NCBI GenBank assembly: GCA_005801425.1
Contig: SYDY01000121.1
Coordinates: forward strand, 19,722-83,721
Origin: Bdellovibrionales bacterium
GTDB taxonomy: Bacteria; Myxococcota; XYA12-FULL-58-9; SYDY01
Direction of reading: 5' to 3'
DNA: 64,000 nt
Shown here piece by piece: positions 12,419 through 57,610 of the stretch (positions within the stretch are counted from its first letter, which is position 1; every line of letters starts with the position of its first letter). A program made the position numbers and the translations under genes. The notes beneath the pieces were generated by a model that was not told the DNA's origin, made no database searches, and saw only the letters and a list, made by a program, of their open reading frames with translations.

Positions 12419-12447
12419 GGGCGGTTCGCGAACCGCCCCTACATATG
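12419..12447 (+). repeat. REP-like palindromic element copy A (GGGCGGTTCGCGAACCGCCC + CTACATATG), overlapping the stop codon of lat
   Basis: Seen directly. A 9-bp stem palindrome with the conserved 3' tail CCTACA. Confidence 0.85.
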
Positions 12448-13746
12448 ACCCAAGGCAGCATCGAGCTGTGCACCTGCACGCCCCACGGCATCGGCTGTAA
12501 CATCCAACGCGGGCCGGAGCCGAATACTGCGTTCACCACAGGGTAAAATCAATAACTTAAGCTCAAAACACGCATCAATCAGGCGATTGCGTTCATCGAT
12601 AGACGGCATATCAAAGGCTGTCCACAGGCCACGACCACGTACCCCGGTGATCTGCGCGTGTTCGTCGGCCAATTCACCCAACACATCCACAAGATAGGCC
12701 CCCATGGTGGCTGCATTGTCGAGCAAACGTTCTTCAACAACAATATCAATCACACGATCGCATCGCACCATGTCCACCAAATCACCACCAAACGTACTTG
12801 AAATACGCGATGGGATTTTGAACACCGAATCGACATCGTCAATACGATCCGTGGCCGCAAAACCACATACCTGGGTTTTTTTACCAAATACCATGAGATC
12901 GGGTTTCACATCATGGTTCATCCAATCCCACCAGCGCCCCGTCGCGCCAAAACCGGTTTGGATCTCATCAAAAATTAAAATCACTTCGCGTTCGTCACAA
13001 ATCATACGCAATGCACGTAAAAATTCGGAACGGAAATAATTATCACCACCTTCGCCTTGAATAGGTTCGATGATGATGGCCGCAATCTCATGATTTGCTT
13101 CATCAAGTACACGGTGAATTTCCGCAAGCGCTTGTTTTTCGCGCTGCTCTACATCGCGTTTGGCAGCATCATCAAAAGGAAAACCCATACGAGGCGCTTC
13201 AACTTTTGGCCATTTAAAACGGGGAAAATAATCAACCTTGCGACGATCGAATGGATCGGTGATCGACAAAGCGTAACCCGTTCGTCCATGAAATGCGCGA
13301 CTAAAATAAAGTATCTGATTGCCTTTATCGCCACGCCCTGCTGCAATATTTTTACGATGCTTCCAATCAAATGCAGTTTTCAACGCATTTTCGACCGCAG
13401 GCCCGCCGCCTTCAATCAAAAATAAATGTTTGAATGCGCCTTGCAATGCAGTTTCGCAAAAGTTTTTTACAAATCGCGCATAATGGGTGGTGTATACATC
13501 GCAGTTGGCAAGTTTGTGGCGCGATACCTCGTCAAGACGCGCGGAAAATGCCGCATCATGCAATCCTGGATGATTGAAGCCTACAGGCCGTGCTGCAAAA
13601 AAACCAAAAAAATCGAGAAATTCAGTATTGGTTTTGGCATCGTAAAGGTACGAACCATGACTTTTGGATAAATCGCACACAATCGGCATACCATCGGCAA
13701 GTACATATTGCTCAAGGATCGGCCATACCTCGGATACTTTTGTCAT
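12439..13746 (-). CDS. lat: L-lysine 6-(epsilon)-aminotransferase, class III PLP aminotransferase
   Basis: 435 aa. DLSKSHGSYLYDA N-terminal motif, EPIQGEGG, and FDEIQTGFGATG with a K-containing active-site region, typical of the LAT family. Confidence 0.75.
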   Translation of the reverse strand: MTKVSEVWPILEQYVLADGMPIVCDLSKSHGSYLYDAKTNTEFLDFFGFFAARPVGFNHPGLHDAAFSARLDEVSRHKLANCDVYTTHYARFVKNFCETALQGAFKHLFLIEGGGPAVENALKTAFDWKHRKNIAAGRGDKGNQILYFSRAFHGRTGYALSITDPFDRRKVDYFPRFKWPKVEAPRMGFPFDDAAKRDVEQREKQALAEIHRVLDEANHEIAAIIIEPIQGEGGDNYFRSEFLRALRMICDEREVILIFDEIQTGFGATGRWWDWMNHDVKPDLMVFGKKTQVCGFAATDRIDDVDSVFKIPSRISSTFGGDLVDMVRCDRVIDIVVEERLLDNAATMGAYLVDVLGELADEHAQITGVRGRGLWTAFDMPSIDERNRLIDACFELKLLILPCGERSIRLRPALDVTADAVGRAGAQLDAALGHM

Positions 13747-17923: not shown

Positions 17924-18322
17924 TCACATCGGTGGAAGATCCCAGATTGTCATTTCGTTCGATGAACGCGAAGCATTCGACACTTTCGAGACCATCGAAT
18001 CCATACGATGCATCTCATGACTTTCAGGCGTTGGAGAATCACCGTAGTCGCCGCTGATCATCGCACTGGGAATGATATAGAATGCGCTCATTGACGACTG
18101 TGAAACGGATTTGCGAAAAGTGGGCACAGCCGGAGCCGGGCTTAGAGTGGGCAACAAAAACGACGAGGGCATACTGCCTCCGTGTGACGCCCCTACCCAC
18201 GCCAAAGCCGTCACGAGGTTATCTTTAAATGCCTGCCAAGCGCTGGGTTTGGATACTTGTGCTTCGTTCAGCGACTTTGTGACATATGGTGTATTTTGAA
18301 TTTTCGATGCTGCACCGCCCAT
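17924..18322 (-). CDS. Hypothetical Ser-rich protein, possible start MGGAASK (N-myristoylation-like motif); doubtful gene
   Basis: Minus-strand ORF between the NlpC/P60 gene and mutY. Internal start MGGAASKIQNTPYVTKSLNEAQVSK is preceded by GGTGGGG. Low-complexity Ser-rich sequence. Weak support. Confidence 0.25.
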   Translation of the reverse strand: MGGAASKIQNTPYVTKSLNEAQVSKPSAWQAFKDNLVTALAWVGASHGGSMPSSFLLPTLSPAPAVPTFRKSVSQSSMSAFYIIPSAMISGDYGDSPTPESHEMHRMDSMVSKVSNASRSSNEMTIWDLPPM

Positions 18323-41974: not shown

Positions 41975-42005
41975 GGGCGGTTCACGAACCGCCCCTACAG
42001 AGAAC
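41975..42005 (+). repeat. REP-like element copy B (GGGCGGTTCACGAACCGCCC + CTACAGAGAAC) between convergent rocD and argF
   Basis: Seen directly. Confidence 0.85.
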
Positions 42006-43019: not shown

Positions 43020-43051
43020 GGGCGATTCACGAATCGCCCCTACAAGAAAAC
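43020..43051 (+). repeat. REP-like element copy C (GGGCGATTCACGAATCGCCC + CTACAAGAAAAC) between argF and thiI
   Basis: Seen directly. Compensatory G-to-A and C-to-T changes in the stem preserve pairing. Confidence 0.85.
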
Positions 43052-45508: not shown

Positions 45509-46131
45509 TGCACCCTCGCCGTAATTCCCTGCTGCATCATGATCTCACCTTCTGTGAGCAATAATTCATCAAGACGTGCTGCAATGATTTCTGGGGATGC
45601 CTCTTTGCATGCAAGACGCACAAAAAGTCGATAATGCCCAGCTTCTGCACGAGCAAGCCGTGAATAAAATGTGCGAAGCGACGGATCTTCCAAGTATTCG
45701 CCCAGTAAAAACAGCCGTTCCCAAGAACGTGCTTCGACAATGCCAACAATCAGAAGCCAGTCGATCTTACGCGCACTGGGATGGCCTTGTCGCCGAAGTT
45801 TCATCAACGCAACCACGTAAGGATCACCCCGGTCTGAACCAAGCATGGCACCACGTGCATGAAGCAAATCAACAACCTGTTGAAAATGTCGCAATTCCTC
45901 TTGCGCCAATCGTGCCATAGCCAACAAAAGATCTGTGTCTTCAGGATATGAACTGATCAAAGAGATCGCAGTCGCGGCCGCCTTGCGTTCGCAATGGGCA
46001 TGATCTTGTAACAATGCAATGAGATCGCTTTTGGCAACATCAACCCATATTCTAGGGGTAGGAACTTTAAGGATCTGATGCGGATGTTGCATTTCGGCAT
46101 CGATACGTTCAAGGGAAATGGCGACGCTCAT
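45505..46131 (-). CDS. Putative tRNA-(ms2io6A37)-hydroxylase MiaE-like ferritin-fold diiron protein
   Basis: HCERKAAATAISLI and EELRHF ... EARSWERL ... EAGHYRLF fit two E..H diiron motifs of the MiaE family. Moderate confidence. Confidence 0.5.
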   Translation of the reverse strand: MSVAISLERIDAEMQHPHQILKVPTPRIWVDVAKSDLIALLQDHAHCERKAAATAISLISSYPEDTDLLLAMARLAQEELRHFQQVVDLLHARGAMLGSDRGDPYVVALMKLRRQGHPSARKIDWLLIVGIVEARSWERLFLLGEYLEDPSLRTFYSRLARAEAGHYRLFVRLACKEASPEIIAARLDELLLTEGEIMMQQGITARVH

Positions 46132-48446
46132 ATATCCGCACCTATTTCAATTTCAATGGCTTGAAATCCTGCATCGCGAATAGCGCGTGCCACAGAGGAA
46201 GTGCCTTCTGGGCACACGGCGATCATCGATCCTCCACCCCCACCGCCGGTAAGTTTCGCACCTGTTGCACCGTGATTGCGCGCAAGATCAACAAGCATTT
46301 CAAGTTCAGGACAGGAAACCTGCAATGCATTCAAAAGGCCATGGTTAAGATTGAATAACAAACCCAGTTCTTGCCAATCGCCTTTTTTGAGTGCTTCAGC
46401 ACCCGCAAGAACCAAAGTATCAATGTCCTGGAAAATGCGTTGATACAAATGAGGAGACGCATCAAAACCTGCACGCACGCGTGCCACCATTTTTGCGGTC
46501 AGGCTTTGAACGCCCGTCATACCGATCACCAATGGTAAAGGCTCCCCAAGTGCAATATTTGTGATGATAGGAGCTTCACCTTTTTGAAACATCATCAAAC
46601 GGCCATAGGTGGCCATGGTGTTATCAATCCCCGATGCCGTGCCATGGGCGATGGTTTCCGACGCATAGGCCAAGGCATTGACGCGTTCATTTGAAAGACC
46701 TAGCGCAAAATACGTATCCAATGCGCGTACAACAGCAACAGCCAAGGCAGCTGAGCTACCAAGCCCTGCGGCACGTGGAATTTGTGGATCGATACGGATA
46801 ATCATATCGCGATCATTCAAACCAAGATCATCCAAAATGACCGAAAGACAATCTTCCAAAGAGCTTGCATTGGCTTGCTTTCGGACCACACGTTCGACAC
46901 CCCAGGTTGGGATCACAAGTCGTATGCCGGGTGTATCAGAAGCAAGAACGCGCGCACCCACGGCCAATGGAACAGGCGCTGCAATCGCATGGGTTCCATA
47001 CACCACCGCATGTTCACCAAGTAAAATCACTTTGCCCGCACCCGTACATTCGGGTGAAAAAGCAACCTGCGGCTCAGTATCGTACGTCGTAAGTTCGCGG
47101 ATAATTTCTTGGGCCTTCCACATTTTAACTTCACCACTGGCCACCAAGGATTTTACCACCTGTTCAAAAATAGCCGATGAAGCCCCTGCGGACGCCGCCA
47201 CACTGCGTGCATGCAAATTCATATGGCCACGCTGGATCCCATCGGTGACCAAGGCACGAAGTGCCGAAAAATTTTGTGCAAGTCCTGCTGCAACCATCAC
47301 TTCAGAGAGTTGCGCTGCGGAGGGTGTCCCCAAAATACGATGGGCAAGCGCTACCATGGGATTAGACTGTAAATTACCGCCCACAACACCCACTTTGATG
47401 GGCATTTTCAGACGGCCACGTAAATTGCCTTCGGCATCTTTCCACCATTGTGTAAGCGACGTGTAAGATCCGGTACGTGCAGCATAAGCATGAGCGCCTG
47501 CTTCCATGGAACGCCAATCGTTGCCTGTCGCGATGGCAACGGCATCAATGCCATTCATAATCCCTTTGTTGTGTGTTGCGGCTCTGTACGGATCGACCGC
47601 CGCAAAATCATTGGCCAGGATCACGCCATCACATACTTCTTCGCCGCTGTAGCCTTTGCCCTCAAGACTCCTCAATGAAAACACCACTTCAGCGCATGCA
47701 AGCGCGCGATCGGCGAGATTTGATAAGATCCGAAGAAAAGCTTTTCCACCAGTCAGTTCTTCCAAGAGCGGCGCCACTTCTTCACACATACTATTCACCA
47801 TATTGGCGCCCATGGCATCGCACGTATTCACCACCAGATGTATTACAAGCATTTCGGCTTTGGTGGTCGGTGCACGATGACGAACCACTTCGACATCAAG
47901 CGCCCCACCACCGCGGGCGACCATCCGAGGATGCAAGCTGTTGGCAAGCTCAAGGATCGTTTGACGTGCCGCCATCACCGCTTGGCGTGCTTTTGTAATG
48001 GATGGAACTTGGGTAATTTGCACTTGTCCCAAAAGAACAGATTCTGCTGGAATACAACGAAAGCCACCACCAGCACGTGCTGCTAACGCAGCAGAACTGA
48101 TGGCCGCAATGATCGACGGTTCTTCAACCACCATAGGAATAATGCGTTCTACATCGTTGATCACAAAATTAAGGCCCAAGCCCATCGGTAAGCCAAAAAC
48201 ACCGATGACGTTTTCAACCATTTTATCGGCATCGCGATCGGTCAAACGAAATCGTCCCGCCAACAATGCATCGCGATCGGTCGCGCTTAAAATATTTTTT
48301 TCAACAAGAATGCGAAGGCGATCCTGTCCTGAAAGTCTGTAAAATCCTGAAAGACGCGAGGTTACCACATCATGCTCCTGCAACAACCGAAACACCTGCT
48401 TGGGCCTTATGGAGATCCAAATCGACAAGATGATTTTCTTGGGCAA
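46128..48446 (-). CDS. Fused class II HMG-CoA reductase / mevalonate kinase
   Basis: The N-terminal ~430 aa have ENVIGVFGLPMGL, DAMGANMVN, TGNDWR and GIQRGHMNLHAR (class II HMGR). After a short linker (TYDTEPQVAFSPEC) the GHMP kinase begins: TGAGKVILLGEHAVVYG, PRAAGLGSSAA, KLTGGGGGGS. No stop separates the two halves. The track start at 48446 is TTG and overlaps the upstream PMK gene by 77 nt, so the true start is probably internal. Confidence 0.8.
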   Translation of the reverse strand: MPKKIILSIWISIRPKQVFRLLQEHDVVTSRLSGFYRLSGQDRLRILVEKNILSATDRDALLAGRFRLTDRDADKMVENVIGVFGLPMGLGLNFVINDVERIIPMVVEEPSIIAAISSAALAARAGGGFRCIPAESVLLGQVQITQVPSITKARQAVMAARQTILELANSLHPRMVARGGGALDVEVVRHRAPTTKAEMLVIHLVVNTCDAMGANMVNSMCEEVAPLLEELTGGKAFLRILSNLADRALACAEVVFSLRSLEGKGYSGEEVCDGVILANDFAAVDPYRAATHNKGIMNGIDAVAIATGNDWRSMEAGAHAYAARTGSYTSLTQWWKDAEGNLRGRLKMPIKVGVVGGNLQSNPMVALAHRILGTPSAAQLSEVMVAAGLAQNFSALRALVTDGIQRGHMNLHARSVAASAGASSAIFEQVVKSLVASGEVKMWKAQEIIRELTTYDTEPQVAFSPECTGAGKVILLGEHAVVYGTHAIAAPVPLAVGARVLASDTPGIRLVIPTWGVERVVRKQANASSLEDCLSVILDDLGLNDRDMIIRIDPQIPRAAGLGSSAALAVAVVRALDTYFALGLSNERVNALAYASETIAHGTASGIDNTMATYGRLMMFQKGEAPIITNIALGEPLPLVIGMTGVQSLTAKMVARVRAGFDASPHLYQRIFQDIDTLVLAGAEALKKGDWQELGLLFNLNHGLLNALQVSCPELEMLVDLARNHGATGAKLTGGGGGGSMIAVCPEGTSSVARAIRDAGFQAIEIEIGADI

Positions 48447-49419
48447 TCAAAATACGAAATTTATCGCAAGCATCGCGATCAGCAAACCACGCCATTCCGA
48501 GATCGCCCCCACCTGCGCCCGAAGGTTTATACACGCCACCACAATAATGGGCCAGCTTGCGTGCTCTTGCATGCCCTGGCGTTAGCATCGGTAAATCCAT
48601 CAGATCGCCTAGGCGACACAACATCGATGAATAGGAATCTACGATTGAAATAAAACGATTGATGTCGCCCTCGGCCCAAGCCGCCAGACCTTCTTCAGCA
48701 AGCGCACAGAGATCACGAACCACGGGCATCATCTGTTTAGGATTTTCGGAACATGCCCAATGAAATTTTTCGAGCCTGGTGGCTGTGTTGCTGCTTTCTT
48801 GGGGCCAGATATAAACCGCATGCAGGTTTTGAGGCCAAGCAAGATCGTCACTGATTGTCACGTCATCCCCATGCCATTGTACCGAACGTATGCCGCCGAA
48901 ATAGCTTGCAACAACGTCCATACCACTGCCACGATGATTTTGTTCTGCTTGGTGCAATGCAATCAATTGACGCCACGAGAACACGGGCGGTTCACGAACC
49001 GCCCCTACAGAAGAACCACAACAATCTGATTTTTTTTCACGAACCAACGCCCCTACATATTCTTCAACTGCTTTCGCGGTTGCGACCATCAATGCTGCGC
49101 TTGAACCAATGCCAAGCTTGATGCCCGTTTTGAGATCGGAAAACGCGGACGTGTCCACCGTAATCGCAGCATCGTGTAGATCCGGTGCACTCGCTTCAAT
49201 CACCCGACGAACAAATCCGAAATATGGATCTAACTCACTAAAAATATCTGGTGATGTTTTATGGCCCGAAGAAACACAAACATGTCCAGGATGCGTACAA
49301 ATCGTTGTTTCGGCAAATCGATCGACAGCCATCACAAGACCTGGTGCACCATGCAATACAGCATACTCCCCAAGAAGAACCACTTTCCCGGGTGCTCGCG
49401 CCGTCAACATGCGCTTCAC
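48370..49419 (-). CDS. Phosphomevalonate kinase (GHMP family) carrying an in-frame tandem REP-element insertion
   Basis: APGKVVLLGEYAVLHG, GIGSSAALMVA and GSGMDVVASYFGG motifs. Residues VGALVREKKSDCCGSSVGAVREPPVFSW are encoded by the REP copies at 48985-49062. Confidence 0.7.
   Translation of the reverse strand: MKRMLTARAPGKVVLLGEYAVLHGAPGLVMAVDRFAETTICTHPGHVCVSSGHKTSPDIFSELDPYFGFVRRVIEASAPDLHDAAITVDTSAFSDLKTGIKLGIGSSAALMVATAKAVEEYVGALVREKKSDCCGSSVGAVREPPVFSWRQLIALHQAEQNHRGSGMDVVASYFGGIRSVQWHGDDVTISDDLAWPQNLHAVYIWPQESSNTATRLEKFHWACSENPKQMMPVVRDLCALAEEGLAAWAEGDINRFISIVDSYSSMLCRLGDLMDLPMLTPGHARARKLAHYCGGVYKPSGAGGGDLGMAWFADRDACDKFRILIAQENHLVDLDLHKAQAGVSVVAGA
48985..49062 (+). repeat. REP-like element copy D plus a degenerate half-copy D', in frame inside the phosphomevalonate kinase gene
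   Basis: GGGCGGTTCACGAACCGCCC CTACAGAAGAACC at 48985-49017. TTCACGAACCAACGCCCCTACATATTC at 49036-49062. Confidence 0.85.
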
Positions 49420-52235: not shown

Positions 52236-52933
52236 TATTTTACTATCCCAACATAAAGATGTGCTGCACCAAAACTTAATCGCGAAAATTTAACATCACG
52301 AAGACCCGCACGGACCATCGAAGCAGCAAATACTTCTGGTGCAGGAAATTTCGCAACGGAGTCTTTAAGATACGTATATTCTGTCGACCGGCCTGCAAAA
52401 ATTCGTCCCAAGAGAGGAACCACACGGTGAACATACAGACGTGCAAAAAAGCCAAAGGGGCCAGTACTCGGCTCGCCCAATTCAAGCACCGCAACCCGAC
52501 CACCTGATTTTGTCACGCGGATCATTTCACGCAATCCCAGATCGCGATCAGGTACATTGCGAATGCCAAAGCTGATGCATGTCCCCGAAAATTGTTGGTC
52601 CACAAAGGGCAAAGCCTCGGCGCTTCCGCCCAGCAGTTCAATCCTTTGCTGCAATTGTGATGCAATAATTTTTTGGCGGCCGACGGCCAACATCGCATTG
52701 CTTGGATCCACACCCACCACCATGCTTTGTGGGATTGTCTGTGCAATCGCAAGCGCAACATCGGCAGTTCCTGTGGCCACATCAAGGACGCGATCACCTG
52801 GTTTAAGTTCCAACATCGCAATCAATTTTCGACGCCAACGTTGATCAAGGCCCAAGCTCATCATGCGATTCATGACGTCGTATTTAGGCGCGATTCTATC
52901 AAACATCGCGCCACTTCCCAAACGTGTTTCCAT
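52235..52933 (-). CDS. ubiE: Demethylmenaquinone/ubiquinone C-methyltransferase
   Basis: FDRIAPKYDVMNRMMSLGLDQRWRR and VLDVATGTADVA motif I. Confidence 0.85.
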   Translation of the reverse strand: METRLGSGAMFDRIAPKYDVMNRMMSLGLDQRWRRKLIAMLELKPGDRVLDVATGTADVALAIAQTIPQSMVVGVDPSNAMLAVGRQKIIASQLQQRIELLGGSAEALPFVDQQFSGTCISFGIRNVPDRDLGLREMIRVTKSGGRVAVLELGEPSTGPFGFFARLYVHRVVPLLGRIFAGRSTEYTYLKDSVAKFPAPEVFAASMVRAGLRDVKFSRLSFGAAHLYVGIVK

Positions 52934-52946
52934 ATTCAGTTCCTCG

Positions 52947-54047
52947 TTATCTTACGCGCTGCACAGATGCTTCTACCACGAAACGCAAAGGTTCTAGGGC
53001 ATCACTTGGTGGCAATCGATCAATGGCCAGCGTTGCTTCTTCGGCATAGCGCAAAGCCAATGCTTTGGTATCTTCAATCACTTCAAGTTTTTTTGCACGA
53101 ACCACAAGTTCATTCATTTCGGCGAGAGATGCATCTTGGGTGATCACATGACGCAGTTCAGCAAGCAAAGAGGGATCGCGTTCGGCGGCCAAGATCCATG
53201 GCCATGTCAACTTGCCCTCTTTTAAATCAACCAGAGGATCCTTGCCCAAAACGGCGGCATTTCCGTCCAAGTCAAGAAGATCATCCACCAATTGGAATGC
53301 CATCCCCAAACTGGTGCCCATGGTGCACAGTTCGGTTTCAATGCTTTTTTCTGCTGAAGCGACCCGAGCACCCGCACACAACGCCCATGAAAACAAACGT
53401 GCTGTTTTTCCACGAATAATTTCCAAATAAAGATCTTGGTTGGGAGAAAATGTCCCACGGCGTTCAAGCTGCAATGCTTCACCGGCAACCATGTCGCGCA
53501 GCGTATCCAACATATCGCATAACAGGTCAAAATGTCCTGTATTTGCAATAAAACGCAATGCAGTAACAAGAAGGTGATCACCGCCCAAAATACTGGCCGC
53601 ATTGCCGTAAATCACGCGCGATGCTGTCGCGCCTCGGCGTTCATCGGCATCATCGATCACATCATCATGAAGCAGTGTTGCGGCATGAACCAACTCTGCC
53701 GCAATGGCGAGATCATGGCGTTCAGGCGCGTTCTTGGTCCCAAGGCGAGCGCCCAGCAAAACACACAAAGCGCGCACACGCTTTCCTGGAAGTGAAAGCA
53801 ATTGCGCAGCAGCAGCCGAAACATGTTCAGATCGCGTTCCTGAAGCTCCTTCCAGTGCATCAATTTTTGATATCACTGTTTCGATCTCCGAGAGATCTGA
53901 AGCAAGCCAAAGTCTGATCTCTTCCAGTCGCGTGGAGGTATCCGTGCAACCATGACGCTCTGTCGTCAGCTGAAGTAGCGGCAAAACTTCCGATGCTGAC
54001 ACCGCTGTGGAATAACTGCTATGTTTCTGTATCACGATGCTCTCCAC
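52947..54047 (-). CDS. Polyprenyl diphosphate synthase (IspB-like; supplies the menaquinone side chain)
   Basis: First DDxxD LLHDDVIDDADERRG and second FQLVDDLLD. The start is uncertain because of the divergent neighbour. Confidence 0.85.
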   Translation of the reverse strand: MESIVIQKHSSYSTAVSASEVLPLLQLTTERHGCTDTSTRLEEIRLWLASDLSEIETVISKIDALEGASGTRSEHVSAAAAQLLSLPGKRVRALCVLLGARLGTKNAPERHDLAIAAELVHAATLLHDDVIDDADERRGATASRVIYGNAASILGGDHLLVTALRFIANTGHFDLLCDMLDTLRDMVAGEALQLERRGTFSPNQDLYLEIIRGKTARLFSWALCAGARVASAEKSIETELCTMGTSLGMAFQLVDDLLDLDGNAAVLGKDPLVDLKEGKLTWPWILAAERDPSLLAELRHVITQDASLAEMNELVVRAKKLEVIEDTKALALRYAEEATLAIDRLPPSDALEPLRFVVEASVQRVR

Positions 54048-55818
54048 GGAAGATCACAGGGGAATTCGCATGGTTTTTACCCATACGCTTACCGCGCGTT
54101 TGTTTGACATCGACCGCGCAGGTATTGTCTTTTTCGGTCGTTTTTTTGAATACTGCCAGGCCGCCCTCGAAGAGCTCACAACTCATATCTTTGGACGATC
54201 CGATGCCGGTTTCACTGCCGGGTGGGGCATGCCGGTCGTCCACACCGATGCCGACTACCGTGCTCCCACGCATATGGGTGATCGACTTCGTGTTGAGGTT
54301 CGCATCGAAAAGATCGGAACCAAATCCATCACATTTCAATATACCATCATGGGTGATGAGGATTGCGTCATCCGAGCGATCTGTCGCATCACGCATGTTT
54401 GCGTCGATCTTAAAACTTTCAAAAGCTGCACTGTTCCCGCTGCATTCGTCGATGCCATGCGACGCCACGGTATGTTGGATCCCCTGCCTTAAAGCAGATC
54501 GGTCTATTTTCCCCATGCGATTCATGGGAAATTCCAAACACACGATAAAGTGTTTGGGAACTTGGGTTGCAGGCAAATGCGCTTTGCACCAAGACCGTAC
54601 TTCGTTCACAGACAATTCGAACTCTGGTTTGGCAACAAGTGCAGCCAACAGCACTTGCCCCATGCAAGCATCATCCAATCCAACCACACACACGGAGGAT
54701 ACTCCGGGATGTTTCTCAAGAACACGTTCAATGGCCGATGGGCTTATATTTTCGCCGCCAGAAATAATCACATCATCACTGCGACCTTGAATTATCACGT
54801 GGCCATCGTGCACTGCACCGAGATCATGGGTTAAAAGTTCGTCTTGAAAACCAGGACCGTGCACCGCCAAATGCCCATCATGTGAAGTCACCTGACAAAA
54901 AGGCAAAGGCCATACATGCGCGTGGGGATCATCGGCAAATGATGTTGCGATTTGCGATCCTGCTTCGGTCATTCCCCATGACATCACAACAGGGATCTCA
55001 GCCGCACGCGCGCGTTGCAACAATGACTCTGGACATGCGGAACCGCCGATAAGTGCTGCACGCAATTTCGATTGCACCGGCAATCCTGGTTTTACATCAA
55101 GCAATTGATGCAGCATGGCGGGCACTAGGGATACAAGATGCACATCGCCTGTTTCGATTCGGGCATGGACCCTCGGTGCAGAAAACGGCAAACTCAGTTC
55201 AACGCACGTTGCGTACCACAAACAGCGCAAAAGCACCGCGATACCACCCACATGATCAAGCGGCAGACATAAAAGCCATGTGTCACTGGGCAAATGTCCC
55301 ATGCGGATCATGGAACCCATGGCAGAAAAAAACAGTGTTTGCGTGGTAAGGATCACCAAGCGATTGCGACCGGTGGTGCCTGATGTAAAAACGCCCACGC
55401 GGGGTGCATTCATGGGCCATGCTACCGCCTGGAACACCCCCACCGCCTCGCTATCGCTCAGCGACTCCCCAAAAGGGAGAGTGTTAGCGGCAAGATCAAC
55501 CGAACTCACCAGAAACGCTGCTTCTGATATTTTCAGCGCCTCTTGTATCTGAGACGAAGAAAAATCCCTGGGTGGGATCACAGCACACGCGCCAAGCCAG
55601 CCTATGGCGTGAAAATCGACGACCCAATCCATATCAAAGGGTCGATGCAGAAAAACACGGGACGTTTCGACAACACCTTGCGAGGCCATGAACGCTGCAC
55701 GTTGCATCACGCGATCGCGCAATTCACGATAAGTCCATTGTAATGCACCATCACGTAGCGCAATATGATCAACCCGCGTGTTTGCTGCCACGTCAAGAGG
55801 ATTGGGTAACTTACTCAT
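54019..55818 (-). CDS. menE: O-succinylbenzoate--CoA ligase (adenylate-forming); the ORF's last ~150 codons run antisense through the thioesterase gene
   Basis: AMP-binding motifs FTSGTTGRNRLV, the hinge region, and C-terminal MGKIDRSALRQG. No in-frame stop until 54019, so the 3' end is uncertain. Confidence 0.7.
   Translation of the reverse strand: MSKLPNPLDVAANTRVDHIALRDGALQWTYRELRDRVMQRAAFMASQGVVETSRVFLHRPFDMDWVVDFHAIGWLGACAVIPPRDFSSSQIQEALKISEAAFLVSSVDLAANTLPFGESLSDSEAVGVFQAVAWPMNAPRVGVFTSGTTGRNRLVILTTQTLFFSAMGSMIRMGHLPSDTWLLCLPLDHVGGIAVLLRCLWYATCVELSLPFSAPRVHARIETGDVHLVSLVPAMLHQLLDVKPGLPVQSKLRAALIGGSACPESLLQRARAAEIPVVMSWGMTEAGSQIATSFADDPHAHVWPLPFCQVTSHDGHLAVHGPGFQDELLTHDLGAVHDGHVIIQGRSDDVIISGGENISPSAIERVLEKHPGVSSVCVVGLDDACMGQVLLAALVAKPEFELSVNEVRSWCKAHLPATQVPKHFIVCLEFPMNRMGKIDRSALRQGIQHTVASHGIDECSGNSAAFESFKIDANMRDATDRSDDAILITHDGILKCDGFGSDLFDANLNTKSITHMRGSTVVGIGVDDRHAPPGSETGIGSSKDMSCELFEGGLAVFKKTTEKDNTCAVDVKQTRGKRMGKNHANSPVIFRGEHRDTET
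54070..54492 (+). CDS. Hotdog-fold acyl-CoA thioesterase (4HBT/YbgC family), probably 1,4-dihydroxy-2-naphthoyl-CoA hydrolase of the menaquinone pathway
   Basis: ARLFDIDRAGIVFFGRFFEYCQAALEEL and VVHTDADYRAPTHMGDRLRVEVRIEKIGTKSITFQY match the 4HBT core. It lies inside the men cluster. Confidence 0.7.
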   Translation: MVFTHTLTARLFDIDRAGIVFFGRFFEYCQAALEELTTHIFGRSDAGFTAGWGMPVVHTDADYRAPTHMGDRLRVEVRIEKIGTKSITFQYTIMGDEDCVIRAICRITHVCVDLKTFKSCTVPAAFVDAMRRHGMLDPLP

Positions 55819-56780
55819 CCAACCCTCTCTATGGGATCGAATGGTGTGTACAAACTTTCCACATCAAGCATGCCATCAACCACCAAAGGACTTACTTGAG
55901 GGATCTCCAACAAGGGCCCCAAAAATCCACAAGGCAAGAGGGGAACATCAAGAGAAGCGGCAACACAAGCCGCAGCATGACGACCGATACTCGACTCAAG
56001 TGCATGGGTGATCGTAATTTCAAAACCTGCAGCAATGGCCTTTCGCGCCATGTCTGTTGTGACCGACAAACCGCCTAAAAACATGGGTTTAAGCACAATG
56101 ACATCCGCCGCACCCATTTCCAGTAATCGCAAAAATCCACCCGGTGTCACCACAGATTCATCGGCCGCAATTTTCATATCCACGCGCTCGCGGAGCCATC
56201 GCATGCCTGCGAGATCATCATGGGCGACCGGTTGTTCTGCAAGCGCAATATTCGCGGTATCAAACGTTCGCAAGGCATGCAGCGCCTCCTCGGCCGTCCA
56301 CACACCATTGGCATCAACCCAAAGTGCAACGTCATTGCCAAGGGCTTCGCGTAAGGCATGAAGCAATCGTGCATCTTCATCGAGTGCACCGCGACCTACT
56401 TTGATTTTAAACGTTCGGATCCCTTGGCTGTAAGCAATCAATGCTTCGTCAACTGAGGAAACCAGTGCGTGAACAGGAACCAACGTTTTATCGGGCGGTT
56501 CACGAACCGCCCCTACAAGAGAACACCTGAGAGAAAGTTCTAAAAACGCTGTTTCTACCGCAAAATCCCATGCCTTCGCCCCATCGCCAAACCCTGGCCA
56601 GGGTGCCGATTCACCAACACCAATATCTCCGTCTTCATTTTCAAGACGCAACCATACACCCCGGCGCATTATCTTTTCAGATAAATGCTGCTCATAGGGA
56701 TGCAAAGTCGCGCGTGAAATTTTCACAGAAGTGCTCCTGCCGTCAGCAATAGGGAAAAACGCACCATCATACGTGGGCAT
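55815..56780 (-). CDS. menC: o-succinylbenzoate synthase (enolase superfamily), carrying an in-frame REP insertion
   Basis: Enolase-superfamily metal ligands (KIKVG ... WVDANG ... DESV). Position in the men operon supports the call. Residues LVGAVREPP are encoded by the REP copy at 56493-56524. Confidence 0.7.
   Translation of the reverse strand: MPTYDGAFFPIADGRSTSVKISRATLHPYEQHLSEKIMRRGVWLRLENEDGDIGVGESAPWPGFGDGAKAWDFAVETAFLELSLRCSLVGAVREPPDKTLVPVHALVSSVDEALIAYSQGIRTFKIKVGRGALDEDARLLHALREALGNDVALWVDANGVWTAEEALHALRTFDTANIALAEQPVAHDDLAGMRWLRERVDMKIAADESVVTPGGFLRLLEMGAADVIVLKPMFLGGLSVTTDMARKAIAAGFEITITHALESSIGRHAAACVAASLDVPLLPCGFLGPLLEIPQVSPLVVDGMLDVESLYTPFDPIERVG
56493..56524 (+). repeat. REP-like element copy E (GGGCGGTTCACGAACCGCCC + CTACAAGAGAAC), in frame inside menC
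   Basis: Seen directly. Confidence 0.85.
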
Positions 56781-57610
56781 TCAGAAAAAGAGGCGTTAAG
56801 CGCGGCACCCGACGATTGATTGATTTTTTGAATCAAACGGATTGTAGGGATTAGCAATACGGTAGGAAGTGCCCATTCCCATCGGTGCGTTTGCACAGCC
56901 AATGCAACAATCAACAACAACGGAAGAATCAGCAACATAGCGATGAGACGACGCTGCCATGAAACGCCAAACCGCACCGCCAATGTGCGCTTGCCTGCAG
57001 CGGCATCGCTTGTTACATCACGAAGATTATTCAGTCCCAAAATGGCTGCGGCATAGTACCCAAGCGCAAATCCTGCGACCCATGCCTCTTGCGATACCCA
57101 TCCTGTATGCAAAAAATAAGCACCGCACACCGCCACAGGACCAAAGAATAAAAACGCAACGCATTCACCAAGGCCATGGTAAGCAAGCGGCCAGGGGCCA
57201 CCGGTATAGGCAATTGCCGTGATGGCAGACACCACGCCAATAGCACAAATAATCCATCCGCCGTACCAGACAAGCCACCCACCACAGAGCGCTGCTATCA
57301 ACAGACTGATCAACGTGCCCACGTGCAATTGTGACGGAGTCAACCATCCCATGCTTGCGGCACGCGGGGGCCCTAAACGCTGATCCTGCTTGTCGGTTCC
57401 GCGTTCAAAATCAGCAGCATCGTTGTGCAAATTGGTTGCGATTTGCAAACACAATGTGGTCACCAAAGTCACGCCAAAAACGAGAAGTGAAGCATGCTTT
57501 TTCGCCGATGCAAGCACAAACGCCACCACAACGGGCGCTGCACCGATCACCAACGTAGGAAGGCGCATGGCCAAAAGCCATGCTCTTGTTTGCGTGTTGA
57601 CACTCATCAA
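56723..57610 (-). CDS. menA: 1,4-dihydroxy-2-naphthoate polyprenyltransferase (UbiA family)
   Basis: Multi-TM UbiA-type protein with [15 protein letters not shown] (the NDxxD-like Asp-rich motif). Confidence 0.8.

Follow-up and report, generated by a model that had tools for sequence, protein, structure and literature searches.

A 64-kb stretch of the genome of a Bdellovibrionales bacterium (contig SYDY01000121.1 of assembly GCA_005801425.1, positions 19,722 to 83,721; hereafter the window, meaning the whole 64,000 nucleotides analysed) carries the same short palindrome inside two protein-coding genes that lie 7.5 kb apart. One resembles menC, the gene for o-succinylbenzoate synthase (OSBS), and the other encodes a kinase resembling phosphomevalonate kinase (PMK). 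What is this palindrome, how did it come to be read as part of two enzymes, and why does it point the same way in both? We find that the menC palindrome is a canonical GTAG-tagged repetitive extragenic palindrome (REP). Our preferred reading, to which we give a probability of about 0.8, is that it arrived by transposase-type spread, is tolerated in a linker of the host protein, and owes its orientation to a strand bias.

A GTAG-tagged REP read in frame in menC

An earlier note on this DNA had described an in-frame REP in menC that yields the same peptide, LVGAVREPP, as an identical palindrome in the PMK-like gene. The palindrome and its GTAG head are indeed read in frame in menC (56493-56516, minus strand), and the PMK copy is identical to this unit at 24 of 24 nucleotides. 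The minus strand of 56483-56534 reads CTC AGG TGT TCT CTT GTA GGG GCG GTT CGT GAA CCG CCC GAT AAA ACG, which translates as L R C S L V G A V R E P P D K T; LVGAVREPP is encoded by 56493-56519, and the translation of the open reading frame (ORF) includes FLELSLRCSLVGAVREPPDKTLVPVHALV. In the PMK-like gene, the palindrome at 48985-49004 and the GTAG at 49005-49008 encode S-VGAVREPP-V, with the shared peptide at residues 138-145. The two proteins thus have eight of the nine residues in common, while the residue before the valine is encoded by the flank and differs (L in MenC, S in PMK). The element, its copies and its two host genes are as follows.

56493-56512, minus strand: REP palindrome GGGCGGTTCGTGAACCGCCC in menC, with an 8-bp stem (GGGCGGTT/AACCGCCC) and a 4-nt loop
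56513-56516, minus strand: GTAG, the guide tetranucleotide or head, adjoining the foot of the menC hairpin; GTA is the valine codon of VGAVREPP
56517-56526, minus strand: CT-rich 5' flank GTGTTCTCTT of the menC REP, similar in four of five copies in an alignment
48985-49008, minus strand: REP (GTAG plus palindrome) identical to the menC copy, in frame in the PMK-like gene
49036-49056, minus strand: degenerate REP GTAGGGGCGttgGTTCGTGAA in the PMK-like gene, encoding VGALVRE
41975-41998, minus strand: intergenic REP between the convergent argD-like (plus) and ornithine carbamoyltransferase (minus) genes
43020-43043, minus strand: intergenic REP in the divergent ornithine carbamoyltransferase/thiI region, with compensatory stem changes G>A and C>T
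12419-12442, minus strand: REP whose loop reads GC, in the gap that separates the L-lysine 6-transaminase gene from dapB
62493-62516, minus strand: member of a second GTAG-REP family, GTAG GGGCAAGGC tc GCCTTGCCC, between the stop codon of rpsD (plus) and a plus-strand terminator
55815-56726, minus strand: menC-like gene, called at 303 aa in public assemblies; its ORF reaches 56780
48370-49419, minus strand: PMK-like GHMP kinase gene, 349 aa, with two REP units

With up to three mismatches allowed, the palindrome occurs at five sites in the window (12419, 41975, 43020, 48985 and 56493) against 0.01 expected by chance, which rules out a chance palindrome. The copies at 41975, 48985 and 56493 are mutually identical; that at 12419 deviates in the loop and that at 43020 in the stem, where the change is compensatory. 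GTAG is invariant at the hairpin foot in all five, and in four of them CT lies at most 3 nt 5' of it. The headed hairpin form can be written GTAG-GGGCGGTTCGYGAACCGCCC, and the unit measures 24 nt, or about 33 nt counting the flank. Altogether, the window holds five canonical copies, one degenerate copy and one of the second family, and no further REP was found in the 9 kb past its right end. Three of the five canonical copies are extragenic and two are intragenic (three of six if the degenerate one is included), an intragenic fraction that seems high. One of the extragenic copies provides a stop codon: the TAG of the head of copy 12419 (12439-12441, minus) terminates the L-lysine 6-transaminase gene (12439-13746). 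The dapB ORF on the other side of this copy is listed from 12539, a start that is probably too far upstream, since the DapB_N domain begins only at residue 56. The copies at 41975 and 43020 lie on either side of the ornithine carbamoyltransferase gene.

Other kinds of repeat were considered and set aside. The copies are single and dispersed, which rules out a CRISPR or attC-like array, and they have neither terminal inverted repeats nor a target duplication outside the hairpin, which excludes a miniature inverted-repeat transposable element. An assembly artefact can be dismissed as well. Two NCBI/ENA contigs, the longest of 297 kb, carry a called gene for the same MenC product; a 62-kb contig of GCA_005801925.1 is identical to the window over the compared stretch 52571-64000; and an independent Logan assembly of SRR8894381 is likewise an exact match, starting in the loop of the menC REP at 56501. 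The first 16 positions of the Logan contig correspond to 56501-56516, and its end is a repeat- or palindrome-induced assembly break.

A hairpin that is copied so exactly could also be kept in the men and mevalonate operons for a function of its own, either as RNA (processing, stability, translational pausing) or as DNA (gyrase- or IHF-type binding), roles that have been suggested for REPs outside genes. In its 52-nt context the menC REP has a predicted minimum free energy of -18.2 kcal/mol, within a range of about -15 to -20 kcal/mol for the hairpin in context; its copies are perfectly conserved, and Di Nocera et al. (PMC3733652) make the case that many REPs act as RNA elements. Translating ribosomes, however, would unwind a hairpin within an ORF, the sites in the two genes are alike only in being tolerant loops, and perfect conservation is equally expected of recent copies. 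An Rfam scan matched only a tRNA and there is no Rfam family for the REP. We regard retention as a functional element as very unlikely.

The same REP in other genomes and in transposase genes

We scanned a collection holding one genome per species for exact matches to the pattern; the source genome was not among the matches listed. The 24-mer GTAGGGGCGRTTCNNGAAYCGCCC was found at at least 119 loci in other species, where about 0.3 would be expected by chance, as estimated from pattern degeneracy and collection size. The matches listed come from Clostridia, Dehalococcoidia, Cyanobacteria, Acidobacteriota, Omnitrophota, Desulfobacterota, Gammaproteobacteria and others, and their flanks are unrelated. 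Among the same matches, 33 elements, about a quarter, have the 'double-foot' form (GTAG...CTAC), and the variable stem position covaries, with 88 A-T pairs, 74 G-C pairs and five mismatches (162 of 167 Watson-Crick).

In-frame copies recur in these genomes as well. Pfam-confirmed cases are the acyltransferase domain of a 2,113-codon polyketide synthase-like ORF (L063:2031-2058; VGAIRESPL), an SMC protein (L069:2328-2355; VGAIHESPL) and a hydantoinase B (L029:5435-5462; GRGGSRTAPT). A secreted DUF7948/SBBP protein (L048), Pfam-confirmed as well, contains both a sense REP (LVGAVREPP) and an antisense one (GGSRTAPT), at 3235-3258 and 3363-3386. The REP also lies in frame within a RayT-like gene (L039:1-285). 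At the DNA level, the palindrome with loop GC is present in the RayT genes of both L039 and L121 (10001-10405 and about 7590-7660), and in L121 it is perfect. The RayT genes carry it in an antisense frame (RGGSRTAPT), directly after the HuH motif. An unbiased HMMER search of 1.84 billion representatives returned 27,354 members of the RayT-like family at E<=1e-3. Among the best 149 of these representatives, 33 have a GGSRTAP-type peptide and 99 some GTAG-REP-like peptide, and in many family members the loop after HuH contains tandem or different REP-encoded peptides. Two of the RayT genes (L121, 1-20405, and L122, 1-5446) sit in or beside type I restriction-modification loci with Fic and PIN genes, in which HsdM/HsdS lie upstream of RayT and HSDR_N and DEAD/ResIII downstream.

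The RayT-like family that carries the REP is TnpA_Y1 subclass 2.4 (RAYT group 4). According to Quentin et al. (2018, PMC6006769), REPs of this subclass are of the canonical long type, in which the stem foot consists of three G-C pairs preceded on the 5' side by GT[AG]G, and subclass 2.4 tnpA_REP genes carry their own REP in frame in the region from HuH to Y. The GGG/CCC foot of the present stem makes three G-C pairs and fits this type, and the double-foot form exists for this REP in other genomes; our element is tied to the subclass solely through its sequence identity to REPs in other genomes. HUH-Y1 enzymes act by single-strand, strand-specific chemistry (PMC6006769; PMC8266576), and Corneloup et al. 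(2021, PMC8266576) showed that TnpA_REP recognizes GTAG plus hairpin on one strand and cleaves at adjacent CT dinucleotides. Such CT cleavage beside the REP would agree with the CT-rich 5' flank of our element; by this analogy, it may be a CT cleavage/ligation site or belong to the mobilised unit. The REPtrons of E. coli, Stenotrophomonas and Marinomonas studied there in vitro belong to RAYT groups 2 and 3, in contrast to the group 4 RayT genes that carry this REP in other genomes, and no biochemical data on group 4/subclass 2.4 enzymes were found in PMC6006769 or PMC8266576. The abstract of PMC8266576 still calls REP dissemination poorly understood.

Among the closest published parallels are the GTAG REP families of Di Nocera et al. 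(2013), which span phyla, lie mostly just downstream of ORFs, can supply a stop codon through the TAG of the head, and in some cases lie wholly within ORFs where they encode VGA... peptides; an intragenic REP of P. putida, for example, encodes VGAGLPA (PMC3733652). Our element has the same GTAG head, short GC-rich hairpin, TAG stop and intragenic VGA... peptides. The published work highlights DNA replication and repair genes, whereas the hosts here are an OSBS-like protein and a PMK-like kinase of a very isolated lineage. The hairpin sequence itself does not occur in the running text of PMC3733652, and literature searches with the REP DNA sequence and the REP peptides gave no match.

Rickettsia palindromic elements (RPEs; Ogata et al., 2000, cited in PMC3733652) are likewise palindromic repeats that lie in frame in protein genes and are tolerated at surface regions; RPE-1 is about 100-150 bp long. 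The two have in-frame palindromes in common, but the present element, GTAG-tagged and 24 nt long (about 33 with flank), differs from RPE-1 in both size and tag. The short REPs of rickettsiae are tagged with CGTC, not GTAG (PMC3733652).

Taken with the window copies, these comparisons point to one GTAG-tagged REP consisting of a guide tetranucleotide and a GC-rich hairpin, of the kind that RayT/TnpA_REP HUH-Y1 transposases recognize as single-stranded DNA. The 24-nt unit would have spread in the manner of a single-strand transposase substrate and then been filtered by purifying selection.

Host genes and the site of the peptide

The menC-like ORF contains an enolase C-terminal (MR_MLE_C) domain, its top NCBIfam matches are OSBS models, and its modelled fold matches 1jpm, 3muc and the OSBS 2qvh, that is, a dipeptide epimerase, a muconate-lactonizing enzyme and an OSBS of the MLE (muconate-lactonizing enzyme) subgroup. 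Domain matches and fold thus bear out the earlier placement of the host in the enolase superfamily. Its scores against the OSBS equivalog models fall under the cut-offs (119.8 bits against 288 for NF002782 and 117.3 against 130.55 for TIGR01927), and OSBS function is assigned from gene context. The neighbouring genes are, in order, a chorismate-binding gene (menF-like), menD, menB, menA, the menC-like gene, menE, a polyprenyl synthase and a UbiE/MenG-like methyltransferase, all intact. The menE-like ORF (54019-55818, minus) is extended at its C terminus by about 150 aa that match no Pfam family.

In an alignment of 112 sequences, K107, K109, D138, E164, D189 and K213 (numbering of the 303-aa protein) are invariant or nearly so; they comprise both lysines of K-x-K, the three acidic residues that bind metal and the second catalytic lysine. 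The AlphaFold2 model of MenC is confident overall (mean predicted local distance difference test score [pLDDT] 89.9, predicted template-modelling score 0.90). The last capping-domain helix spans residues 49-65 and the first barrel strand residues 82-88, and the stretch between the two contains the REP-encoded residues 71-78. Residues 71-80, modelled as coil or short helix, have a mean pLDDT of 58, among the lowest in the protein. The motif VGA[IV][RH]E[PS]P occurs in none of 111 MenC homologues, which rules out a native OSBS motif, a possibility that the earlier note had named as fatal to its reading. The menC copy sits in the only stop-free head-sense frame and adds VGAVREPP to the linker between capping helix and barrel strand; on our preferred account, copies in other frames or in structured protein parts would have been lost, and frame-preserving ones in tolerant linkers would remain. 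Such loss of disruptive copies would make the remaining ones look aimed.

An alternative is that menC is decaying or inactive and that menaquinone is made in another way or not at all. The scores below every equivalog cut-off and the position of the REP in the capping-to-barrel linker would fit this, as would the lack of about 40 capping-domain residues that the nearest homologues have between PWPGFGDGAK and AWDFAVE (about residues 45-52). Against decay stand an uninterrupted ORF, conserved catalytic and metal-binding residues, a confident model, an intact men cluster with polyprenyl synthase and UbiE/MenG-like methyltransferase, and the finding that 40 actinobacterial-type OSBS homologues combine a short capping domain with a short linker. 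The short capping domain of MenC itself resembles this actinobacterial type. We consider decay quite unlikely; most likely, the enzyme has kept its function and the insertion has little or no effect on it.

The second host has phosphomevalonate and mevalonate kinases as its top matches and adjoins genes for diphosphomevalonate decarboxylase and a 3-hydroxy-3-methylglutaryl coenzyme A (HMG-CoA) reductase/kinase fusion. The latter, an ORF at 46128-48446 (minus) of 772 aa (746 as called), joins HMG-CoA reductase to a GHMP (mevalonate) kinase. The degenerate REP of the PMK-like gene lies 48 nt upstream of the intact one. Together, degenerate REP, spacer and intact REP make up 72 nt, or 24 aa, of REP-derived PMK sequence, and 24 homologues lack any counterpart of the segment VGALVREKKSDCCGSSVGAVREPP; from this comparison, a net insertion in PMK is clear. 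In the PMK model (mean pLDDT 90.3), the intact REP peptide lies in coil between two helices, and the blocks that contain it are less confident (pLDDT 68 for residues 131-140 and 82 for residues 141-150).

Orientation, strand and the spread of the element

When the coding strand carries the GTAG head, VGAVREPP is the product of frame 0; frame 1 opens with TAG, taken from the head, and frame 2 runs into a TGA from the loop. In the antisense direction, all three frames are free of stops (GRFTNRPY, GGSRTAP and AVHEPPL). The earlier statement that the alternative frames would also be open therefore applies to the reverse complement, in all three of its frames, and not to the other two frames of the observed orientation, which carry stops. 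Because a single sense frame is open, the shared peptide is forced once the orientation is given, and its identity in the two genes adds no further information.

Why, then, this orientation? From the two in-frame copies, the earlier note had concluded that orientation is what is selected. Selection on the GTAG-sense orientation, or on the VGAVREPP peptide, would explain why all three intragenic units, the two intact ones and the degenerate one of PMK, read in sense although three antisense frames are open. However, only two or three events are at hand; with the two intact intragenic events and equal odds over the four viable combinations of orientation and frame, P = 1/16. The bias also extends beyond coding sequence. 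The octamer GTAGGGGC, which marks the heads, occurs eight times in the 64-kb window, all on the minus strand, against 0.64 expected in total:

12435-12442, 18189-18196, 41991-41998, 43036-43043, 49001-49008, 49049-49056, 56509-56516 and 62509-62516, minus strand: GTAGGGGC heads

These heads include three intergenic REPs and the second-family element at 62493-62516, which is antisense to local transcription, with rpsD (plus) before it and a plus-strand AAA_28 gene after it. Beyond the second-family REP, the plus strand has an intrinsic-terminator-like hairpin, GGGCC...GGGCCC followed by T8. Given that intergenic and antisense REPs share the strand of the intragenic ones, orientation looks like a property of the strand or region and not of the ORF. 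In other genomes, moreover, sense and antisense REPs coexist in one gene (L048), and the RayT genes use the antisense frame (GGSRTAPT). The claim that orientation is selected is thus not supported, and we judge selection on orientation or peptide very unlikely.

The GC skew of the plus strand is negative in 16 of 16 4-kb bins, so that the heads lie on the G-rich strand, which would be the lagging-strand template. One-strand heads together with this skew suggest that REP orientation in this region is tied to the strand and possibly coupled to replication, a pattern that would fit the strand-specific chemistry of HUH-Y1 enzymes. Most likely, the intragenic copies share their orientation because REPs spread in a strand-specific way in this chromosomal region, and such a regional bias explains it better than selection on orientation does. 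The majority of the genes in this section of the window also lie on that strand. A more far-reaching version, in which spread is locked to the lagging-strand template and survivors in leading-strand genes are forced into the single open sense frame, is at present doubtful. If true, many enzymes would carry a VGAVREPP tag, which would be an in vivo footprint of replication-coupled TnpA_REP activity, and this would be a lineage in which REPs actively invade essential biosynthetic genes.

Several observations weigh against transposase-type, strand-biased spread into a tolerant linker. At the host, the OSBS scores and the shortened capping domain have been given above, and the MenC linker is no longer than in the nearest homologues: from capping domain to barrel it counts 18 residues, compared with 9 in 40 homologues and 19-27 in 70, so that a pure eight-codon insertion cannot be told from insertion combined with loss of native residues. 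We infer an insertion in MenC because the segment is identical to other REP copies, not from protein length. The lineage is also very isolated: in a search of 5.8 billion protein clusters, the nearest homologues reach 39-45% identity for MenC and about 34% for PMK, and with no close relative an empty site cannot be demonstrated. As to a source of transposase, no RayT turned up in the 73 kb of readable sequence from this genome (the window plus 9 kb to the right). A regular expression for the HUH and Y motifs matched nothing in the window or the collected loci, but it was too strict; phmmer with an E. coli YafM sequence found only the RayT-like gene of L039 and nothing in the window. Finally, in other genomes the head strand is uncorrelated with local GC skew (44:47 among the matches listed), and inverted REP pairs are common in the loci.

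Two further ORFs of the window stand apart from the REP. That at 3731-4576 (minus) contains repeated W-x-P-N-G/MORN-like motifs, and that at 4726-7176 (plus; 816 aa) contains a C-K-S-G-K-D-R-T-S motif like that of CX5R phosphatases. Both were read from the translation only, and they might hint at a host-associated lifestyle.

Intragenic frame-preserving REPs and the use of TAG as a stop codon are published behaviour, of which menC is a further example, and the conceptual gain is small because such intragenic REPs were already documented. The case is nevertheless a natural example of a compact bacterial genome that tolerates small mobile palindromes within enzymes of the menaquinone and mevalonate pathways, with two isoprenoid/quinone-pathway genes sharing an eight-residue insert in surface linkers. 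It also carries a warning for annotators, as VGA...P(P/T/L) and GGSRTAPT-type peptides in many phyla are REP-derived. More useful is the one-sided strand distribution, which, together with the single open frame, yields a testable prediction: that the spread of these elements would be replication-coupled, not selected for orientation.

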